Shown here one piece after another: positions 10,428 through 40,836 of a DNA stretch of 64,000 nucleotides; position 1 is the first letter of the stretch; each line of letters starts with the position of its first letter. Under the pieces are notes generated by a model, which searched no databases, was not told where the DNA came from, and worked only from the letters and a program-made list of their open reading frames with translations. The position numbers were made by a program, and so were the translations under genes. This DNA comes from a virus. Its lineage: Duplodnaviria; Caudoviricetes. Location of the stretch: the IMG/VR virus record IMGVR_UViG_3300036546_000248, one strand, 5' to 3'.

Positions 10428-12704
10428 TTACAGAGCAGTTACACGACGTACCAGCATCGAACCTGGAACCAGCCAGCCACGATGGACTTCCAGTACGTTA
10501 CCCACACTGTCCACGAAGTAGTGGTGTTTAACCCGCTTCTTCTGATCGCCGTGGTGACGACCAAAGGAGGCACGAATGGCACCCAAGAGGGCTTCATCCA
10601 TTTCCTTCGTGATTTGCAGTGCTTCATCGTCGCGGAACTCCGGACCGAACACACCCGGCAGGTGCACCACTACATTCTTCTCAACCAGCGACAGCACTGA
10701 CTGATACTGACGACGCTGCTCTTTTGGAGTTTTGTCGATCAGCTCATACAGGTATGCCGACTGGTCATCACCGGTCAGTACTTCCAGAGCCGGCAATGCG
10801 ATTGCGCTGTAGCGCTCCTTGTTCAGGGTGTGCCACATGGTGTGGTAACCATCCGAACGAATGGCGTCGCCCAAGGCATCCATATCGTAGATGAAGTCAT
10901 CAATGTTCAGCCCTTTGCCATAGCCCAGGTTATAGGCCAGTGCATCATTGACAGCTTCGGTCAGGATGGAGTTCAGTTTGGACTTCAGCAGCATGTCCAT
11001 GTCGGCATCACGCAGCATTGCAGACAGCTCTACCAACGTTTCACACTGACGCAGCTCAGAGAGCTTAGCCAGATGCGGCTTGGACAGGAACAGCGGTGTC
11101 ACCTTACGGAAGCTGTACTCCACTGGCATGTCTTCTGGCACATCGTGACAGATCATTTCCTTGTGGTAGTTCAGTTCGGCCTCTTCGAAGGTATGGCACG
11201 CCTTCTTGAGATCGAGGAGGAGGATATCCACCGGGGTGGGTTCCTGACCTTCTTCCAGTTTGGATTGAGCTTCTTCGTGCTCTTTGAGTTTCTCGACCGG
11301 CAGGGGTTCATGCGTCAACGCAGACCACGGTACCTCAGCGACCTTGACGTCCTCAGGCAGACGGTAATCAAGGCTCTTACGGATTTCGTGGTTCATGTAT
11401 TGCATGCTAGACCTCAGATCGTCTTCGATTTCGACCAGTTTCTCACGGATAAACATCGACCCGTCAGGATTGATCTTACGGATGTGGAACTTCATGAAGC
11501 GCTCAGGATCGCAGAACAATCCATAAGGCTGCGCCGGATCGTAGCTGACCTTCCAGCCACTGGAGTAAGCGGGACGTACTTCTTCACCCGATTCCAGTAC
11601 CAGTTGATCCCACAGACGATTGGGGTCCGAGGCAATGAAGCCCATCTTGTTGACGAACTGGAGACCCGACAGATCCAGAGGATGGAACTCACCCGGATTT
11701 TCCAGCGACTCGATTACCGTCATCTGCTTCGGTTTGCCGGTAGGCTGTTCCTGAACAGGTGCTTGGGTTTGAGCCGGCGGGTTGTAGGACCCTTGTTGAG
11801 TTTGCGGGACAGCACCCGACCCATAACGCTGCGAAGTTTCAGAACCCCATTCTTCCATGATCGCATCTACTCCCTGTAGTTTGGTCACTTCGACTTGCTG
11901 TTCTTCTTGAGAACTCTGGACTGCCGGGGTGTACGAGTTGCGCTCGTTGCTCCGACTAACCACAGCATCAGCGGTGTTGTTGTGCTGATTCTGTTGGCCC
12001 GCCCAGCTGGGCTGCTGCATTTGATTGCCCCACCCTTGCTGCGGTTGACCCCAACCAGACTGTTGGGTCTGTTGTGGCCAGTTCTGCTGCATCGGTTGTT
12101 GTTGGGTTTGGGCGGCTGCCCACTGACCACGCGGTTGCTGGAACTGCATGGAGTTCTGTCCCCACCCTTGTTGCATCGGTTGTTGCATACCACCCCAACC
12201 ACCCTGCATCTGCTGACGCATTTGGCCGATGCGCTGGGAGATTTGCTGATAGGTCGCAAGCAACGCTTGGATTTCTTGCTGCTGCTGAGGCGGCATGCCG
12301 TTCATCAGTGCAGGAAACTTCTGCGTGTAGATCGCAGCCAAACAGCTAGCCACTTGGTTGGCAGCTTGGACGATAGCCGCTTCGGGGTTGTTGCCTACTT
12401 GGCCGGAGCTAAGGAGAACAAACGCAAAGTCCGACACCGCCATGAAAGCGCTTTCGAACTCTGGGTTGACCCAGCGGTTCTGCGACAGCATGTTCGCAGT
12501 GAAGCAGCGCAGCGGGTTGCGGCCCGCGTTATCTTGAACCACCTTGATCAGATACCCAGCCACCATCGGGTTGAACTGTTGCATTTGGGGCAGGGAATTG
12601 AAGTTGAAGGAGACCGGGATGTTCGGAGCACTCGGGTAGAAGTTCTCCTGCATCGGACGGTCGATAGGTACAGGAAGCGAACCGTACATGGGTTGTTGGT
12701 ACAT
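10428..12704 (-). CDS. Conserved jumbo-phage hypothetical protein with Q/G/W-rich low-complexity region
   Basis: 758-aa ORF; residues about 135-330 dominated by Q with repeated GWGQ/QW units. Confidence 0.75.
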   Translation of the reverse strand: MYQQPMYGSLPVPIDRPMQENFYPSAPNIPVSFNFNSLPQMQQFNPMVAGYLIKVVQDNAGRNPLRCFTANMLSQNRWVNPEFESAFMAVSDFAFVLLSSGQVGNNPEAAIVQAANQVASCLAAIYTQKFPALMNGMPPQQQQEIQALLATYQQISQRIGQMRQQMQGGWGGMQQPMQQGWGQNSMQFQQPRGQWAAAQTQQQPMQQNWPQQTQQSGWGQPQQGWGNQMQQPSWAGQQNQHNNTADAVVSRSNERNSYTPAVQSSQEEQQVEVTKLQGVDAIMEEWGSETSQRYGSGAVPQTQQGSYNPPAQTQAPVQEQPTGKPKQMTVIESLENPGEFHPLDLSGLQFVNKMGFIASDPNRLWDQLVLESGEEVRPAYSSGWKVSYDPAQPYGLFCDPERFMKFHIRKINPDGSMFIREKLVEIEDDLRSSMQYMNHEIRKSLDYRLPEDVKVAEVPWSALTHEPLPVEKLKEHEEAQSKLEEGQEPTPVDILLLDLKKACHTFEEAELNYHKEMICHDVPEDMPVEYSFRKVTPLFLSKPHLAKLSELRQCETLVELSAMLRDADMDMLLKSKLNSILTEAVNDALAYNLGYGKGLNIDDFIYDMDALGDAIRSDGYHTMWHTLNKERYSAIALPALEVLTGDDQSAYLYELIDKTPKEQRRQYQSVLSLVEKNVVVHLPGVFGPEFRDDEALQITKEMDEALLGAIRASFGRHHGDQKKRVKHHYFVDSVGNVLEVHRGWLVPGSMLVRRVTAL

Positions 12705-32874: not shown

Positions 32875-33498
32875 TTAGGCTGCCGGAGCTTCCGGTTGAG
32901 CAAAGGTCCAGCTGATGGCGTTGAACGCAACATCGTCACCCAGCTCTGCAGCAGTTCGCAGTTGTTTCTCGATACCGTGGCGGTATGCGGTGAAGCCAGC
33001 CAGCGCCGGACTGTACACTGCATCATTAGCCAGGATACGCGAGACCAGGTCTTCGAAACCGTCGCCAACATTTGCAGCCACGCGCCCTTCGTTCAGTTCC
33101 ACCAGGAACGGAACTTCAGGAGCATCACCTACACGACCACCATCGATCCATGCTTGGTACGCACGGGCTTCAGTGACTTGTAGGGTCCACGTGTGTGTTT
33201 CAGCAGCGGGGTAATCGACATTGAGGACAGCCACCGCCTGATCGTAGTCAGCATTCAGACGACCCAGTTGGATGGTCAGACGCTCGGCCAGCGGCTTGGC
33301 CAGATACTCTTCTTCCGGAGTTGGGATGTGAGGTGCTTCTACAGCGATCGGATTGCCTTCGGCATCTGCATCGAGCACCTTACCGGCAGCCAACTCGATC
33401 ATCAGTGCGGTAGCAACTTCCTCGGTCAACAGAACCGCATCGTCACCCACCGGCAGGTTGAACAGGCCTTTACGAGAAGGCGAGAAATAGGTATTCAT
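32875..33498 (-). CDS. Tail fibre assembly (Tfa-like) protein
   Basis: N-terminus YFSPSRKGLF...DDAVLLTEE...GKVLDADAEGNPIAVEAP typical of Tfa chaperones. Confidence 0.7.
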   Translation of the reverse strand: MNTYFSPSRKGLFNLPVGDDAVLLTEEVATALMIELAAGKVLDADAEGNPIAVEAPHIPTPEEEYLAKPLAERLTIQLGRLNADYDQAVAVLNVDYPAAETHTWTLQVTEARAYQAWIDGGRVGDAPEVPFLVELNEGRVAANVGDGFEDLVSRILANDAVYSPALAGFTAYRHGIEKQLRTAAELGDDVAFNAISWTFAQPEAPAA

Positions 33499-33521: not shown

Positions 33522-34265
33522 TTACGGGGTGTACTTGATCCACAGGTCGCCGTCTTTACCGTCAGCAGCGACAGGGTCAACGGTCGACACGAAGATGTTG
33601 GCCGTCGAGGCAGTACCGAGGTTCAGTGCAGTTTGAACGTCACTGATTACCTGTGCTTTGGTGCGACCTTCAAGCTTAGCCGAATCAGCTGCCTGGGCAG
33701 TGGCGTTAAGCTTACCGGCCAGGTCGTCAGCCAGTGCAGCTTCGGCAGCCGCGACAGCTTCAGTTACAACCTGAGCTTTGCTCGAACCTTCCAACTTCTG
33801 AGAGTTTACAGCCGTAGCAGTAGCGTCCAGTTTCTGGCCGACCAGAGTGGTCAGTTCGGTGATCACATCCGGGTTGTTCTGTAGGGCTTCGGCCAGCTCA
33901 GCGATGGTGTTCAGGGCTTCCGGGGAAGCACCGATCAGCTCGTTGACAGCCGACTCGATAGCCGCTTTGGCCGACACAGCGGTGATGTACTTGACATCGT
34001 CAGTGCCCGCAACAGCTTCAGCAACCGAGGCCTTGGCGGCCACGAAGTCATTGAACCCTTGTTGCAGAGTGGCGAGGTCAGCACCCGAAGCCAGATCAGC
34101 CAGCAGAACGGCCAGTTCCAGTTCACCCACTTTGTATTGACCGAAGTCATCAGTCTTATCGACCTTGGACCCCAGCGATGCTGCGACGGAGGCAAGTGCC
34201 CCGTCTACTTTTTCCGACACCCAAGTCGAAAATTCGGCAAAGCCGAAAAAACGTTTATCAAACAT
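33522..34265 (-). CDS. Short tail-fibre-like protein (KRFFGF family, copy 3)
   Basis: MFDKRFFGFAEFSTWV; SPEALNTIAELAEAL and DSAKLEG fibre motifs; C-terminal DGKDGDLWIKY. Confidence 0.7.
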   Translation of the reverse strand: MFDKRFFGFAEFSTWVSEKVDGALASVAASLGSKVDKTDDFGQYKVGELELAVLLADLASGADLATLQQGFNDFVAAKASVAEAVAGTDDVKYITAVSAKAAIESAVNELIGASPEALNTIAELAEALQNNPDVITELTTLVGQKLDATATAVNSQKLEGSSKAQVVTEAVAAAEAALADDLAGKLNATAQAADSAKLEGRTKAQVISDVQTALNLGTASTANIFVSTVDPVAADGKDGDLWIKYTP

Positions 34266-34367
34266 TTTTGATGCTCCGTTGAGGTGAAAATAAAGCAAGC
34301 TTGAAAAAGGTGTGTCGAGAGGCCAGTTTCGAGAGCCCTTTTTCATCGCCCTCTCATAAGATTCTGA
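34266..34367 (-). promoter_or_regulatory. Conserved late leader (TATG promoter plus GAAACTGGCCTCTC motif)
   Basis: GAGAGGCCAGTTTC (34317) and TCATAAGATTCTGA (34354) recur with identical 37-nt spacing at 47581/47618. Confidence 0.6.
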
Positions 34368-34406: not shown

Positions 34407-35186
34407 TTAATCCTTTCTGATTAAACGGATGAACCAAGCTGCTGTATCGACTTCACCCTTTTTCATCACGGTGGTCCATGAGCGAGGATGTGCGTGGTGG
34501 TTGTTGTGTAAACCACAAGCACCAAAACTCAACAAGTGCATGCTCGGGGAGTTTTGAGAATGGTCGGGTGTGTCGAAACTACGGTAGTTCAGAGGTGCCT
34601 TAGCATGAAGCATGTAGTTTTGGACCGTAGAAAGAAAGGGTCCCAACGCCCAAGGCAAAAGTACAATGAACATCAACCCATTGATCCCCGCCAACCAATA
34701 CCACAGACACGCCCACCCCAACATCCAAAGAACGTAGTATTGGTGCAGTGATTTGTGGATAGGGTCACGAGCCAAGTAACGAACAGAATGTAACGTTCCC
34801 GTGTAAGGATAACGCCACACCAACAACTCCCAGAACTTCGAGTATTGTGCACTGTGTGGATCTTTCTCGGTATCCGAGTATTGATGATGGGCGGCGTGGA
34901 TCATCGCCCAACCCATGGTCGATCCAGTTCCCGGTACCACACTGGTCAGTACTGCCAATAACCACTCAACAGGTTTGCTAAGTTGATACGCCCCATGAGT
35001 ACAGAAGCGATGGGCAAAGGCTTCGATCAAACAAATGTTGAAAAACGCCACCACACCCAAAGTCGCCCACAACCACTGGTAATTCAGTTGTGTTGTGTAG
35101 TGAAGAACCGGTAGTAGTGTCACTACTAACAACACCTGCAGCGGCATGAACTCGCCCCGCGAACGAGTGTATTCCCAAAGTTTCAT
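34407..35186 (-). CDS. Membrane fatty-acid desaturase (delta-9/DesC-Ole1 type), copy 1
   Basis: His boxes HRFCTH, HAAHH(QYSDTEKDPH) and HNNHH; TM helices. Confidence 0.9.
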   Translation of the reverse strand: MKLWEYTRSRGEFMPLQVLLVVTLLPVLHYTTQLNYQWLWATLGVVAFFNICLIEAFAHRFCTHGAYQLSKPVEWLLAVLTSVVPGTGSTMGWAMIHAAHHQYSDTEKDPHSAQYSKFWELLVWRYPYTGTLHSVRYLARDPIHKSLHQYYVLWMLGWACLWYWLAGINGLMFIVLLPWALGPFLSTVQNYMLHAKAPLNYRSFDTPDHSQNSPSMHLLSFGACGLHNNHHAHPRSWTTVMKKGEVDTAAWFIRLIRKD

Positions 35187-35196
35187 ATCAACCCCC

Positions 35197-36120
35197 TTAA
35201 GACAAAAGTGTCACAAATTGTTCGAGGTACGATTCTTGGTTTGGGATTGCTCGATTAAAAGCAACCCGCAAATGATGCGTACCGTTGTAGGAGATCACTT
35301 GGAGTCTTCCCATCTGATTCTTCTTTAGAAACTGTACCAGTTCAGTAGGTTCAAAGTGACTGGAACCTATCGGGAAAGAGCCTACAAAGAAGTTTCCAAT
35401 CTTCTCACTCAAACCAAACTTCATGATCAAACGAGTGAAGTTTTCGTGACTGATGTCGAGCGAGAACTTCCCGTCTTTATTAGACCCTAAAGCATAGAGC
35501 GAGTAGTGTCCCCAATAGTCCTCACACCCTTCTACAAAGCGCGTGGTGATGATGTTAGGGTTATCCAATACCGTACAAGTCACTTGAGCGAGGTAGTCCT
35601 GTACACGCATCCCTAGGGCTTTAGCTTGACGCAAGTAACCGGTACCAATGGGGATGCTGTAGGTGTTGGCTAAACCGACCTCCCCTTCAAAGACAAAGGG
35701 TCTCAGTTCCATTGGTCCCGTCGGTTGTATTTTCGGTAAAGGTTGGTTGGATACATAAGTCCCTACCTCACCAGTTCGGGCAATGTGGAACAGTTCACGC
35801 GTGGTCTTCATGAACGTCCAACCATCAACAAACTCGTGGGACAAACCAATCCAAAATCCGTTATCGTCCTCGGTGACCGATAAGCAGGTTGGAATCTGTT
35901 GGTGGAGGTTACCGTGACCTTGTGTTACCAACACCCGATCATGTTCCACGACTTTACCATTGACCACACAGGCTTTAAGAAGTGGGATGTGATGAGTCAG
36001 TTCGTCCACCGCTTCTTGCATCAGGTTGCGGTCACATGGGAATAAAGGGACGTTCAAACTGCTGTACATCATCGCCTTTCCATCATTAAGAAAGGCTTTC
36101 TGAAGTAGGTTCAATTTCAT
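35197..36120 (-). CDS. Condensation-domain/CAT-fold acyltransferase-like protein
   Basis: LNLLQKAF (LSxxQ-like), QEAVDELTHHIPLLKACV (xALxxLxxRHxxLRxxF-like), SHEFVDGWT (HHxxxDG-like). Confidence 0.6.
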   Translation of the reverse strand: MKLNLLQKAFLNDGKAMMYSSLNVPLFPCDRNLMQEAVDELTHHIPLLKACVVNGKVVEHDRVLVTQGHGNLHQQIPTCLSVTEDDNGFWIGLSHEFVDGWTFMKTTRELFHIARTGEVGTYVSNQPLPKIQPTGPMELRPFVFEGEVGLANTYSIPIGTGYLRQAKALGMRVQDYLAQVTCTVLDNPNIITTRFVEGCEDYWGHYSLYALGSNKDGKFSLDISHENFTRLIMKFGLSEKIGNFFVGSFPIGSSHFEPTELVQFLKKNQMGRLQVISYNGTHHLRVAFNRAIPNQESYLEQFVTLLS

Positions 36121-36860
36121 CGTTTGATTAGCCTGATAAACCACGCCCCTGGGTCAATTTCGCCTTTTTTCATGGCCATGTCCCAGCGGTTGGGGAAAGC
36201 GTGGTGGTTGTTGTGTAGACCCTCACCCCCAAACAAAAGTGCTAAAAGTTTGGAGTTGCGTGAGTCATCATTAGTGTTCCAACTCTGGTATCCGAACCTA
36301 TGGACCCAGTCGAGCAAAACTGTTTTGCGTAATACCTGAGTACACGCCGTTGGGATCGCCCACAAATAGATCAGAGCCTCCCACGAGATCAAGGCTAGAA
36401 CACCGGCCGTTACTAGAGGATACAAAAGGTAGTACTTTTGAATACGCATCGCAACAGGGTCGTTTAGAAACTGTTTGAGTAACCGTCGGGGGATTGTGAG
36501 GTTCAGTTTCTTAGCGTTGACCAAACCCCAACCGCGATAATGGTTGTGGGGGTCGTTCGGGGTGTCTGAATGTTTGTGGTGCTCGCGGTGGATAGCAATG
36601 CTGATATAGGGATGGAGTCCTCCGGCGGCACAGATAGCCCACACCATAAACTCCCGCCAGAATGGACTGGTTTCAAATGAACGGTGTACAAAGTACCGAT
36701 GAGCCCCACAGGCGACGCCGCAGACCCAATACACTTGAAAGGCCATAAAACTCCCCAGTACCCATAAGGCACTGGGGTGAATTACGCAGAACAGACTGAT
36801 TCCCATTGCCAGCACAGCTACCAGAACCGAAGCCCTGCCACTGAACTGTAGATATTTCAT
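36117..36860 (-). CDS. Membrane fatty-acid desaturase, copy 2
   Basis: HRYFVH, HREHHKHSDTPNDPH and GEGLHNNHH. Confidence 0.9.
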   Translation of the reverse strand: MKYLQFSGRASVLVAVLAMGISLFCVIHPSALWVLGSFMAFQVYWVCGVACGAHRYFVHRSFETSPFWREFMVWAICAAGGLHPYISIAIHREHHKHSDTPNDPHNHYRGWGLVNAKKLNLTIPRRLLKQFLNDPVAMRIQKYYLLYPLVTAGVLALISWEALIYLWAIPTACTQVLRKTVLLDWVHRFGYQSWNTNDDSRNSKLLALLFGGEGLHNNHHAFPNRWDMAMKKGEIDPGAWFIRLIKR

Positions 36861-37645
36861 TTACGGATCACCTTGATAATCCAATAAGCTGGATCGAATT
36901 CCCACCACTTCTCACGAAGGTTAACGGCCGTTTGGTCGTGATGGTGGTTGTTGTGCCAACCTTCACCCCCGGAGATGAGTGATACGAACCACCAGTTGTG
37001 ACTCAAGTCAGGTGTTTCGTGGTTACGGTAACCCAGTCCCGGTACGTGTCCTGACCAAACCACAAACCGCAAAGTCATGTGACACATACCACCTGGAACG
37101 AGGTACAACCAGAAGAGTGCAGTCAGAGGATCAAGTCCTGCAAGTACACCCACCGAGGTCAGACCAGCTGCCAACAGCGCTACGATCAAGAAGTAATACT
37201 TGATAGTCAATCCGTGCATCGGGTCACTTGCCAACATCTTAAGCAACATGCGGTTGCCTTTGAAGTTTTCGTGGCTGAAGGGTGAGACTCCTGTGCGGAT
37301 AAAGTCGATATACGGATCATCGTCTTCATCGGCATGTTTGTGGTGCTTGATGTGCAGATCAGCCCATACACAAGGCGGACCTGTCAAGGCACCTACGCAA
37401 CTGACTGCCATCACCCACTGCCAGAAACGACTGGTTGTGAACATCCGGTGAGAGAAATAACGATGCGCTCCCACCACCAATCCCATCACTTGCAAAAACT
37501 GCCAGATAGCAAGGGTTGCAAACAACAGTCCCCAACTCATGCCAAAGACGTACGCCACCAAGGGCGCTGTAAGGACACAGGCTGCGGTCAACCGATTAAC
37601 GACTTTAAGTCGTGAGTAGGTAATCATGAAAGGTGGGGTTTGCAT
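36857..37645 (-). CDS. Membrane fatty-acid desaturase, copy 3
   Basis: HRYFSH, HIKHHKHAD and GEGWHNNHH. Confidence 0.9.
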   Translation of the reverse strand: MQTPPFMITYSRLKVVNRLTAACVLTAPLVAYVFGMSWGLLFATLAIWQFLQVMGLVVGAHRYFSHRMFTTSRFWQWVMAVSCVGALTGPPCVWADLHIKHHKHADEDDDPYIDFIRTGVSPFSHENFKGNRMLLKMLASDPMHGLTIKYYFLIVALLAAGLTSVGVLAGLDPLTALFWLYLVPGGMCHMTLRFVVWSGHVPGLGYRNHETPDLSHNWWFVSLISGGEGWHNNHHHDQTAVNLREKWWEFDPAYWIIKVIRK

Positions 37646-37648
37646 GCG

Positions 37649-38287
37649 TTACTCCTGAAGGCTTTCGACGGTGGCTAAACTCTCCACCGGAACGTTGGTA
37701 CATTGGGCTTTGACTTCTTCTACAGTTGCTTCATAAACATAGACCAGGAACGCATTGTCTTGTCCGGTATTACGGAAGCTGTAGTCTTGGGGTTTAGTCA
37801 AACGAAGGTGTTTGATGCTATTGAACACCCCGCCGTCATTTACCTGAAGAGCCCCTTCTACGATAAAGACATTTTGCTCCATCTCTCGAGGGGTGATCAC
37901 ACACGACTCACCGGGAGCCAACGCGTAGTTCTTCGACAGGTAGAGCTTGGCCATCGGGTCTTGTGCATTGATGCACATAAACCGATTGCGATCCTCCATC
38001 CCCAGCAGATGAAAACTACCCTTGATGGTCACACGACTCTCATCGCCACCGTCACCACGACTCCGAATGAATTCGGGTGTAACGGTAGAGCCGACTTTAA
38101 AAGCCCCTTCGATAAAGGCGTTGAATCGGTAGGTGTTGATACCTGCATCGCTGGAACCCAAAGTCGCTTGTGCGGGCACGTCTACAGGTACTGCGGCGAT
38201 CTTGTTTTTTTCCAGAACCAGTTCGAACAAGTCAAAGCCATTTACGCGAGTGACGTTCCAACCGTTACGGGTATAGGTTGTACTCAT
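37649..38287 (-). CDS. Beta-rich, cupin/RmlC-like protein of the desaturase cassette
   Basis: LAPGESCVI...NVFIVEGALQVN pattern typical of cupin barrels; no clear metal-binding His pair. Confidence 0.55.
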   Translation of the reverse strand: MSTTYTRNGWNVTRVNGFDLFELVLEKNKIAAVPVDVPAQATLGSSDAGINTYRFNAFIEGAFKVGSTVTPEFIRSRGDGGDESRVTIKGSFHLLGMEDRNRFMCINAQDPMAKLYLSKNYALAPGESCVITPREMEQNVFIVEGALQVNDGGVFNSIKHLRLTKPQDYSFRNTGQDNAFLVYVYEATVEEVKAQCTNVPVESLATVESLQE

Positions 38288-38524
38288 TTAAATCTCCTCC
38301 GTGACTTCTCGAGTCACTTGGGTTTCTTCCAATCCTTCGTTGTGATTGGTGGCGGGTTGATGAGGCAGACCGCAGTTGAACAGAACCGCATAGGCCATCC
38401 CTTGAAGGAATGCTTCGTCTGGAGGGAGTGCACCCACATCCATAGGCTCGTAAAAGATCTCCACATTCCCATGCAGTGTTTCTACCACCACACTCTTTTC
38501 ATTACGACTGACAAAATTAAACAT
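38288..38524 (-). CDS. Small acidic protein heading the desaturase cassette
   Basis: 78 aa; abuts the next gene (TAA-ATG). Confidence 0.6.
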   Translation of the reverse strand: MFNFVSRNEKSVVVETLHGNVEIFYEPMDVGALPPDEAFLQGMAYAVLFNCGLPHQPATNHNEGLEETQVTREVTEEI

Positions 38525-38534
38525 GGAGTCACCT

Positions 38535-39086
38535 TTATGGGAGGAGTTTAACGACAGTGGATTTATTGAGGATAGCGCTTCTTACAGTCGTAAATTGTGC
38601 CGCGGTTATAGCAACAGAAAAGACAATTGTACTGGTGCCAGTTTTAGTGTTTGTAACAACTGTAAAGGCTCCTGAGAACGTCACCCCACCAATTACCAGT
38701 TTGGTCGCGTAGGACCAAGCAGGTCTCGCTCCACCCGTATTGACTTCAAAAGACACACTGTAGCTACCGGCATAATTCATTACCGAACAAGTCGAAATGG
38801 CGTAGCCAGATAACGTGGTCGGTGAAACCGAGCCGTACGTGGCTGAGCCGAAACCCACATTCTCATACCCAGATGTGGGTACATAGGAAACGGCACCCAA
38901 AGTGATTTCAGCCAGACTGTTGTTAACGGCCTTGCCGCGCAACATCGACAAGTTCACCTGACCACTGAGTGCACCTACTAGTTGACGAATAGAGGCATCA
39001 CTCAAATTTAATTGTTGATTGGCAGGACGACCCAATTCAGTATTGATCATACTGAATGTGATCGGACCGGAAGTAGGCAATGCCAT
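38535..39086 (-). CDS. Putative tail-fibre tip adhesin
   Basis: MALPTSGPITFSMINTELG N-terminus common in genes following S74-chaperone fibres; beta-rich C-terminal domain. Confidence 0.6.
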   Translation of the reverse strand: MALPTSGPITFSMINTELGRPANQQLNLSDASIRQLVGALSGQVNLSMLRGKAVNNSLAEITLGAVSYVPTSGYENVGFGSATYGSVSPTTLSGYAISTCSVMNYAGSYSVSFEVNTGGARPAWSYATKLVIGGVTFSGAFTVVTNTKTGTSTIVFSVAITAAQFTTVRSAILNKSTVVKLLP

Positions 39087-39147: not shown

Positions 39148-40836
39148 TTATTTTTCGAGTTGGCTTTGGAGTTCGGTAAGTTGCACTTTGATTTGCTCAA
39201 CCGACAGCACCAATTGATCGAGTTTCGATCGATCATTGTCAGCCAAGTCCGCCAGCTCATTGATCGCCATTACCACGTACGGAAGTGTGCGGTGGTATTT
39301 CATTGTGAGGTAGTACTCACCCGATCTTGAGACATTCGGTTCCCCGTCGTCATCGTAATCAAAAGGTGCCAACTCAACAATTTCAGGCGCAACGACTTGC
39401 CATTCTTGAGCACTGAAACCCACCTCAGGTTTGAGGGGGTCGTAGCCAAACCCTGCGGCCAATTCGTTGGCCGTATAGCGATAGCCCGTGATGGTACGTA
39501 GACTTTCCAAAGCCCCTTCAATCGGCGTCATGTTCTCTTTCAGACGTTCGTCGGAGTAGAAGCCACTGATCTCACCTGTGGCTGCAATGTTACCCTCAAC
39601 GTAGAAACTCTTAGACCCGTACACACGAACCCAAGTAGTATCCGACATATGGATGCCGCCACCATAGGTCTCGCTATACCAACCTGTTGCTCCGGTGGAA
39701 CGGAACCAGTTCCCCGTATAGAAAGTCGAAGCCGTGATGTTACCGTTTACGGTACCACCCGACGTACTGAACTTGGCATCCAGAGCTGCTTGAAGACCCG
39801 ATACAGTCGAGATCGCTTGTGTACCCGTATGGTTACTACGGCTCAACAATGCAGCGTCTGTGGAGTTAACAGTGGCGCCGGCTGAGATACCATTGAGCTT
39901 GGCTTTATCGGCCGCACTTAACAACCCAGCCGCCGCAGTAGTGGCTCCAGGCAAACTGGCATTCGTACCCGTGGAGCTGGTTATAGTACCGGCAGTAGCA
40001 CCTGTGGTATAGCCCAAATCGGTAGGTACGTTGACTTGGGCGCCAGCAGCAATACCGTCCAGTTTGGTTTTATCCGCAGAGCCTGTCCACCATGCAGCAA
40101 TTGCCTGACGTACCCGTTGTGCAGTCCAAGCACGACGCGTTGTAGCCACACCTGTCTCTGCTTCAGACTGGGTGATCGTAGTCGCTGACCACTCACGGGC
40201 ATCTGTCAACCGTGTATCCGTCTTGTCGACTTTAGAAGCCAACTGGTTGGTGATGGTAGTTGCAAAGTTGGGATCATTACCCAATGCCGTTGCCAACTCA
40301 TTCAACGTATTCAACGCATCAGGAGAAGAATCTACCAGCGCCGAAATAGCTGCATTTGTGAAGGCTTTGTACTCAGCTTCGATTGTCGCCAGTTGTTTAC
40401 CATCAAGCGCGTCAGCATCCAATCCTGAGTTAGGACCGTCCACTGTCAACAGCTTAGCCAAAACGTCACCAGCGGTATAGCCAGATGCATTGAGTTTGGT
40501 GTTCAATGCGGCCTGAAGAACGTCAGGCTGTACCGCAGTGTCGGCCTTAACGCCTTGTGCGGCAGTTGCAAATTCGGTACGGGCCGTCACATCCAACTTA
40601 GTGTCTAGGTTGGCTGCTGCGATTGCCTCAAGAATAATCTGGGCTTTTGTTTTACCGTCAAGCAAGGATGAATCCACAGCTTTTCCAGCAATTGCCAAGA
40701 AAGTCTCAAGGGCTTCTTGTTTCGTGTGTACACTGGTTTTATCAGCTTTAAGGTTGAGGGCATCCATGACCCCCGTGACTTGGTCACGCACCCACATGCT
40801 GAAATCAGCAAACCCAAAATAACGTTTATTGGTCAT
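39148..40836 (-). CDS. Long tail fibre with C-terminal peptidase S74 intramolecular chaperone (KRFFGF family, copy 2)
   Basis: SPDALNTLNELATALGND, GLLSAADKAKLNGI, WFRSTG and YSDERLKEN...VGFSAQE. Confidence 0.85.
   Translation of the reverse strand: MTNKRYFGFADFSMWVRDQVTGVMDALNLKADKTSVHTKQEALETFLAIAGKAVDSSLLDGKTKAQIILEAIAAANLDTKLDVTARTEFATAAQGVKADTAVQPDVLQAALNTKLNASGYTAGDVLAKLLTVDGPNSGLDADALDGKQLATIEAEYKAFTNAAISALVDSSPDALNTLNELATALGNDPNFATTITNQLASKVDKTDTRLTDAREWSATTITQSEAETGVATTRRAWTAQRVRQAIAAWWTGSADKTKLDGIAAGAQVNVPTDLGYTTGATAGTITSSTGTNASLPGATTAAAGLLSAADKAKLNGISAGATVNSTDAALLSRSNHTGTQAISTVSGLQAALDAKFSTSGGTVNGNITASTFYTGNWFRSTGATGWYSETYGGGIHMSDTTWVRVYGSKSFYVEGNIAATGEISGFYSDERLKENMTPIEGALESLRTITGYRYTANELAAGFGYDPLKPEVGFSAQEWQVVAPEIVELAPFDYDDDGEPNVSRSGEYYLTMKYHRTLPYVVMAINELADLADNDRSKLDQLVLSVEQIKVQLTELQSQLEK

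Follow-up and report, generated by a model that had tools for sequence, protein, structure and literature searches.

We analysed a window of 64,000 nucleotides (nt) that forms part of a 131.5-kb virus record of IMG/VR (IMGVR_UViG_3300036546_000248, ~47% complete, called G000 here). Its minus strand carries a compact run of genes that is headed by a tail fibre and includes three membrane desaturases, and among these lies the subject of this work, a gene encoding 307 amino acids (aa) that we call the C-like gene (Table 1). Its predicted structure makes the product a stand-alone member of the superfamily of nonribosomal peptide synthetase (NRPS) condensation (C) domains and CoA-dependent acyltransferases, with two CAT-like lobes, and the block that it forms with the desaturases suggests that the virus encodes a lipid-tailoring pathway not described before. 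The initial annotation of this DNA had placed here a gene for a free-standing enzyme of this type, and the gene is real: its open reading frame (ORF) runs from an ATG at 36120 to a TAA at 35197-35199 and belongs to a conserved family. A GTG 8 codons upstream is a possible alternative start, but the ATG is supported because the homologues all open with M[KR]L and retain the 4-nt ATGA overlap with the desaturase gene that precedes it. The protein has no transmembrane or other hydrophobic segment (maximum Kyte-Doolittle score over 19 residues, 0.86) and an isoelectric point near neutrality, and is therefore expected to be soluble. Pairwise ratios of nonsynonymous to synonymous substitution (dN/dS) lie between 0.04 and 0.19 wherever dS is not saturated; being low over the whole protein, they indicate that the gene is under purifying selection.

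Predicted fold and motifs of the C-like protein

The structure of the C-like protein was predicted with AlphaFold2 from a family alignment of 10 sequences (A2), giving a predicted local distance difference test score (pLDDT) of 93.3 and a predicted template modelling score of 0.90, with all five models at a pLDDT of at least 90.7. Foldseek retrieved 257 PDB chains at E<=1e-3 with this model and, among the matches listed, these belong to the condensation superfamily throughout. In VIA-align comparisons, 280-307 residues spanning both lobes are aligned at Z values of 15-23. The best neighbour is AzeD (PDB 8S6L; Z 23.1, root-mean-square deviation 3.2, 307 residues aligned, 14% identity), followed by the cyclisation (Cy) domain of the pyochelin synthetase PchE (Z 23.0), the peptidyl carrier protein (PCP)-C structure of fuscachelin synthesis (Z 21.9), CDA-C1 (4JN3/5DU9; Z 21.8), the starter C domain RzmA-Cs with C8-CoA (7C1L; Z 20.7), TRI3 (Z 19.6), SgcC5 (4ZNM; Z 18.6), PapA5 (1Q9J; Z 18.5) and VibH (1L5A; Z 16.1), while BAHD enzymes score 15-18. 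All 307 residues superpose colinearly on ~415-423 residues of the targets, so that the C-like protein has both lobes but is ~110 residues short of the canonical domain. Its neighbours in the ESM Atlas (cosine 0.96) are clusters of the CoA-dependent acyltransferase, Condensation, WS_DGAT_C and AATase types, WS_DGAT_C being carried by 15% of the members of one of these clusters. The condensation/CAT-type fold that had been read from the sequence is thus borne out by a CAT-like prediction, by its matches and by C1-, C2- and C3-like motifs; of the groups that had been named for a comparison by AlphaFold and Foldseek, NRPS C domains and PapA5 were both matched, and no WS/DGAT enzyme is found among the top 50 structural matches listed, although one may rank lower.

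The three signatures on which the first reading was built, LNLLQKAF, EAVDELTHHIPLLKACV and SHEFVDGW, are all present in the protein, and they are the only motifs of C domains that can be recognised in the family. The first presumably corresponds to the NRPS C1 consensus, and the EAVDELTHHIPLLKACV stretch is weakly aligned to the C2 region of McyA (HMMER, domain 1). SHEFVDGW is the most informative of the three. In the model it comes after a strand and begins a helix, which is the canonical C3 position in the structures of VibH, CAT and C domains, and the colinear superposition suggests that H95 may face an inter-lobe channel open to solvent. Seven instances of HxxxDG are present among the ORFs of all six frames of the window (~0.06 per 307 aa), so that by itself the motif could arise by chance. 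What raises it above chance is the invariance of H95, D99 and G100, the fold, and the fact that PDB matches of the family profile fall on C domains only. Indeed, the three residues are among eleven invariant positions in A2 and do not vary over 26-86% identity, in a family motif of the form [S/T/N/D]-H-x-x-[ILV]-D-G-[W/Y]. Searched against PDB sequences, the A2 profile gives only three matches, bacitracin synthetase 3 (the best, E 0.0048), McyA and McyB, all of them NRPS C domains and all aligned exactly at HHxxxDGWS. Beyond the motif, sequence-only homology to C domains is marginal.

The C-like protein is nevertheless outside the canonical NRPS C domains by the Pfam threshold, the first histidine, the length and the lack of NRPS partners; PF00668 is not matched even at E<=10 by any of the 10 family members. 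It also falls outside the BAHD family and, by Pfam, the WS/DGAT family: a DFGWG-like motif as in BAHD enzymes is present in none of the family members, and no Pfam match of the C-like protein to PF03007 or PF06974 was found. The family is rather a miniaturised, phage-restricted and deeply divergent branch of the superfamily, with 307 aa here against ~400-450 aa in known members, and no fused or longer relatives (563-2000 aa) were found. It comprises ~30 sequences among 15 billion, all of metagenomic origin, the contigs of several being 75-270 kb long. HMMER over 1.84 billion cluster representatives returned nine proteins. Eight of them, with 287-321 aa, are homologues; P0012, a protein of 495 aa that is annotated as a protease, is a marginal match (E 8e-4, residues 107-141 only) and was left out of the family. 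The family was found on phage contigs only. No relative was found in 185,579 prokaryotic species (one genome each) or in JGI metagenome contigs, and P0011, a distant member, was not found in IMG/VR. The expectation that such proteins are rare in phages also held, since tblastn against 50,697 GenBank phage records gave no match to the C-like protein (nor to the neighbouring p212), and the single match at E<=0.001 among the viral structures of BFVD comes from a eukaryotic giant virus.

The desaturase block and its conservation

IMG/VR holds five other loci with a C-like gene, one closely related to ours (L002, 86% identity), three at 45-46% (L003-L005) and one at 37% (L024). The order S74 fibre, p183-like gene, p212-like gene, des262 orthologue, des247 orthologue and C-like gene is shared by all loci, and the 4-nt overlap of des247 with the C-like gene is retained wherever the gene ends could be read (L002, L004 and L024). 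This fixed order and the translational coupling with desaturases, found in three diverged phage lineages, support the earlier proposal of a pathway over that of separate auxiliary genes. Linkage to desaturases probably extends to the distant members P0005 and P0008 via the same short contigs, for their Logan contigs are equal in size to contigs with orthologues of des247 and des262 (P0030, P0047, P0035). In the third lineage, a Peptidase_M15 (endolysin-like) gene stands after the cassette (L024:7209-7757), the block lying there between fibre and lysis functions.

Table 1. Features of the C-like gene block, in the order of transcription; positions are those of the window
Feature	Position	Strand	Observations
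fib562, tail fibre with C-terminal S74 intramolecular chaperone	39148-40836	-	Peptidase_S74 E 1.6e-10; heads the block
p183, adhesin-like, conserved N-terminal MALP.SGPI	38535-39086	-	PHROG 26817 E 4e-7; kept in L002-L005 and L024
p78, small conserved protein	38288-38524	-	homologue detected in L002-L005 only
p212, cupin-like	37649-38287	-	in the window and all five related loci
des262, second divergent desaturase	36857-37645	-	PF00487 E 2.5e-15; 33% identity to des247
des247, SCD/Delta9-type membrane desaturase	36117-36860	-	PF00487 E 1e-12
ATGA overlap, des247 stop and C-like start	36117-36120	-	no separate Shine-Dalgarno sequence seen
C-like gene (P0001), 307-aa protein, predicted soluble miniature of the condensation superfamily	35197-36120	-	ORF and translation
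LNLLQKAF, C1-like N-terminal helix motif	36091-36114	-	L3, N4, Q7, A9 and F10 conserved in close homologues
EAVDELTHHIPLLKACV, C2-like helix/turn	35965-36015	-	P46 invariant
SHEFVDGW, C3-type motif	35818-35841	-	H95, D99 and G100 invariant; flanked in the model by strand 89-93 and helix 100-116
des259, third desaturase	34407-35186	-	PF00487 E 3.4e-14; window and L002 lineage only

In the window the minus-strand order is S74 fibre, p183, p78, p212, des262, des247, C-like gene, des259 and then a second gene of the fibre type, which has a leader of its own. From p183 to des259 the spacing varies between a 4-nt overlap and 10 nt, and no convincing terminator was found inside the run from the fibre to des259, where hairpins are no commoner than in shuffled sequence. 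A strong Shine-Dalgarno sequence (GGGGG) precedes des259, 10 nt past the C-like stop.

The placement of the C-like gene between desaturases, already pointed out in the initial annotation, is confirmed by PF00487 matches of 49-57 bits (cut-off, 29.7) to des259, des247 and des262, each with all eight histidines of the His boxes (H61/H66, H98/H101/H102, H231/H234/H235); des247 also matches a DesA-family model of NCBIfam, far under its cut-off. The three are only 29-33% identical to one another, and their nearest cellular relatives (~35% identity) are annotated as acyl-CoA or stearoyl-CoA Delta9 desaturases. In L003-L005 and L024, des259 is absent downstream of the C-like gene. It is confined to the window and L002. 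Outside L002 its best matches are desaturases from other viral arrays, at 34-37% identity, slightly nearer than its own neighbours (29-33%). It was therefore a later addition, and the cassette expanded through acquisition rather than tandem duplication.

The thioester and the electrons that such enzymes need must be host-derived, because no domain for either was found: a PP-binding domain is present in none of five phage records (G000 and four related ones, three of the four 96-100% complete), and G000, at the completeness given above, yielded neither an AMP-binding domain or ligase, for which it was the sole record searched, nor rubredoxin or Fer2. A phage-encoded electron donor was accordingly rejected for G000. 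So was a cluster of the polyyne/JamB type, with ligase, acyl carrier protein (ACP) and three desaturases, given that no ACP was found in the five records and no ligase in G000, and that the conserved core contains two desaturases.

As for the other genes of the block, fib562 shares an N-terminal KR[YF]FGFA[DE]FS.WV anchor with the second fibre gene (33522-34346, minus strand) and also has a segment like Shufflon_N; after the second, shorter fibre gene comes a gene for 207 aa (32875-33498). For p78 there is no Pfam, PHROG or PDB match. Its homologues in L003-L005 (5590-5823) contain P-L-D-L-G-G-L-S-V-K-E-A-F, which resembles an ACP phosphopantetheine site, while p78 of the window and of L002 reads D-V-G-A-L-P-P, with proline where the ACP-like serine sits. 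We rejected p78 as an ACP on account of this replacement in the window's clade and of the lack of PP-binding and PDB matches. The model of p212 is poor (pLDDT 61), its C-terminal half being cupin-like at Z ~9, and the ESM Atlas likewise offers cupin leads at 0.86-0.87; with no HxH motif and such a model, a role as a metal-dependent oxygenase was also discarded.

The ribonucleotide reductase genes of the record resemble those of jumbo phages of Pseudomonas, Xanthomonas and Ralstonia, and the identity of a large ORF (10428-12704) to its match in PhiPA3-type phages is only ~24%. The source phage is thus a deeply branching relative of phiKZ-like jumbo phages.

In IMG/VR, 455 viral stretches are matched by a profile built from des247 orthologues, and we counted neighbours in the best 80 of these 455 loci. 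At least two short SCD-like desaturases lie within ~10 kb in 59 of the 80, in arrays that usually hold 2-7 mutually divergent copies; L041 (4953-10493) has seven in tandem, and further examples are L031 (1870-5792), L058 and L062. The C-like gene is present in five of the loci only and absent from 75 other viral desaturase loci, and the C-like cassette is thus one architectural variant in a large set of viral desaturase islands. Recurrent neighbours in the other arrays are a GNAT acyltransferase (20/80), a PP-loop, QueC-like protein (24/80), an AspH-like hydroxylase (20/80) and B12-radical-SAM enzymes (11/80), together with CMD, Rieske, TauD, cupin and aminotransferase proteins. The recurrence of GNAT makes an acyl-transfer partner a repeated theme of these arrays, which look like a class of lipid or metabolite tailoring islands. 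Several neighbour families (u210, u221, u241 and others) were considered as cryptic C-like proteins and rejected, with hhalign probabilities all below 1%. In L031 and L050, contigs whose organisation is otherwise different, 4-5 tandem desaturases stand directly before an S74 tail fibre (Phage_fiber_rpt and Peptidase_S74; L031:7454-9943), and in L088 (3582-4421) a p183-like gene is paired with a desaturase; the association of fibre and desaturase therefore recurs beyond the clade with the C-like gene. We did not find viral tandem-desaturase islands described; the literature searched covers single cyanophage Delta9 desaturases (PMC5776448). The sole desaturase match among GenBank phages, a 390-aa protein of 'Acinetobacter phage MD-2021a' (CAKLQH020000002.1, 49237-61899; L009), was discarded as a phage example, its context of trpBC, btuB and baeSR being that of a bacterial chromosome.

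What the C-like protein may do

The reading that we favour, and to which we give a probability of about 0.55, is that the C-like protein is an acyltransferase: it would take an acyl chain from the ACP or CoA thioester of the host and pass it to an acceptor that bears a hydroxyl or an amine. The desaturases would act either ahead of this step or following it. One late transcription unit headed by the tail fibre would make the C-like enzyme and two (here three) SCD-type desaturases, with translation of the former coupled to that of the second desaturase; judging from the conserved gene order, the enzyme and two desaturases would be held in a fixed stoichiometric context. Fatty acyl chains of the host would first be given double bonds by the desaturases. 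H95 would then activate or position the hydroxyl or amine of the acceptor, which would attack the thioester of the acyl-ACP or acyl-CoA, and the outcome would be an unsaturated lipid, ester- or amide-linked. We infer the transfer chemistry, the use of the desaturated chain and the supply of the thioester by the host, the last because neither a carrier protein (five records) nor a ligase (G000) was found in the phages. Starter C domains that handle fatty acyl groups, and the free-standing SgcC5 and PapA5, are among the strong structural matches of the protein and serve us as working analogies.

Several observations weigh against this reading. AzeD, the top structural neighbour, is a dehydratase and not a transferase, and the Z values of C, Cy and AzeD structures are tied within ~1. 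The first histidine of HHxxxDG is replaced by S, T, N or D throughout the family, and with ~110 residues missing, the donor and acceptor tunnels may differ from those of canonical domains. When the family is aligned by hhalign to the C domain of EntF, the match covers the motif region only (YHHLLVDGFS), at a probability of 2%, and the C-like protein reaches no curated threshold in Pfam, PHROGs or NCBIfam. Also, although the closeness of the fibre and adhesin genes is suggestive, tail-fibre neighbourhoods are frequent sites of cargo insertion, so that the linkage to the fibre may be without functional meaning.

The strongest alternative, unlikely as we consider it, is that the same histidine site would carry out a non-transfer chemistry, such as dehydration, isomerisation or epimerisation, tailoring the product of the desaturases in its free or lipid-bound form. 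Besides AzeD, C-type domains that dehydrate or epimerise operate in this manner. AzeD is a stand-alone C-family dehydratase with a PHxxxDG motif that acts on a free small molecule in the azetidomonamide pathway of P. aeruginosa, and about one third of its 'C_standalone' clade are reported in a preprint to vary the first histidine of HHxxxDG (10.64898/2026.07.17.738954), as the C-like family does. Cy and epimerisation domains likewise rank high among the structural matches, and the lack of a carrier protein in five records and of a ligase in G000 agrees with this reading. However, true condensing and starter C domains lie within 1-2 Z units of AzeD, to which the C-like protein is 14% identical and bears no match at the level of sequence; the motif runs on as DGW[ST], as C3 does in NRPS condensation domains, and the ESM neighbours are annotated as acyltransferases.

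We find it rather improbable that the protein would have no catalytic role and would instead bind to the desaturases as a partner, determining which substrate, chain length or position they act on. There are precedents for such roles in the superfamily, as CER2-like BAHD proteins modulate the condensing enzyme KCS and the X domain of NRPSs recruits P450s. The complexes CER6-GL2 and KCS6-CER2 are indeed among the structural matches (Z 15-18), the ATGA coupling to des247, kept in three lineages, suggests stoichiometric co-assembly, and a heavily trimmed domain would be compatible with this role. Yet H95, D99 and G100 are invariant over deep divergence, which is unexpected in a scaffold, and in relatives that have no catalytic role, the X domain for example, the HHxxxDG motif is typically lost; dN/dS is, moreover, low across the entire protein. 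Finally, an independent cargo gene ('moron') that came to lie among the desaturases by chance and acts on an unrelated host substrate would agree with the hot-spot nature of tail-fibre regions and with a region that accretes genes, as the clearly later des259 indicates, but it is very improbable, given that in every retrievable member the gene adjoins, with a 4-nt overlap each time, the end of one and the same desaturase orthologue and that the family was not found without a desaturase in the genomes of 185,579 species or in the 75 other viral desaturase loci.

Returning to acyl transfer, a more specific proposal would be that a di- or tri-unsaturated chain built by the phage is attached by the miniature C protein to p183 or the fibre tip, candidate acceptors encoded on the same transcript, or to an envelope lipid by which the host is recognised as a receptor, so as to aid adsorption or exclude superinfecting phages. 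We hold this to be doubtful; the C fold is not known to serve such an end, nor has this been reported for any phage.

If acyl transfer is correct, the C-like protein would be the smallest functional condensation/acyltransferase fold, ~25% shorter than known stand-alone members, and would help to define the smallest core that an NRPS C domain needs for catalysis. Phages would then carry multi-step lipid-tailoring pathways, beyond lone desaturases for 'membrane fluidity', and the cassette would offer a handle on the larger, unexplored set of viral tandem desaturases (455 IMG/VR stretches, with up to seven in a row). Its set place behind fibre and adhesin genes would also suggest that lipid chemistry is linked to host recognition, an idea open to testing. 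Should only the assignment of the fold hold, the family would still be a phage-exclusive and deeply divergent branch of a well-known superfamily.

Comparison with known systems

AzeD resembles the phage protein in being discrete and free of NRPS modules, with a two-lobe C fold in which the first histidine is replaced and the His-Asp-Gly is kept. It differs in size (433 residues versus 307, at the identity given above) and in setting, since AzeD belongs to a bacterial cluster of NRPS and Baeyer-Villiger monooxygenase genes and dehydrates a bicyclic carbamate, whereas the phage protein is found with membrane desaturases in a tail-fibre operon.

The starter C domains CDA-C1 and RzmA-Cs perform the chemistry that we propose here, transferring a fatty acyl group from acyl-ACP or acyl-CoA to an amine by means of the histidine of HHxxxDG. 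These domains, however, lie inside NRPS modules, use an aminoacyl-PCP as acceptor and measure ~430 aa, while in the phage neither a PCP (five records) nor an adenylation domain (G000) was found. VibH, SgcC5 and PapA5 stand alone, as the phage protein does, and couple an acyl group, held as a thioester, with an amine or alcohol that is free, the products of PapA5 being lipid esters. They have ~400-440 aa, both histidines and dedicated carrier or polyketide synthase partners, in contrast to the phage block, where there is no such partner.

On the side of the desaturases, the closest parallel is that of the cyanophage proteins vFAD-I/II, Delta9-type membrane desaturases of phages that are read as modifiers of host lipids; there the desaturase is an auxiliary gene, and the abstract makes no mention of an acyltransferase partner (Roitman et al., ISME J 2017, PMC5776448). 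Here, two or three divergent desaturases are in an operon with a C-fold enzyme, behind a fibre, in phages related to phiKZ. The combination of a soluble superfamily protein with a membrane lipid enzyme is also seen in the complexes of CER2-like BAHD proteins with KCS (9UU3, 9KQG). CER2-like proteins are regarded as modulators that lack catalytic activity, whereas the phage family retains its invariant catalytic residues.

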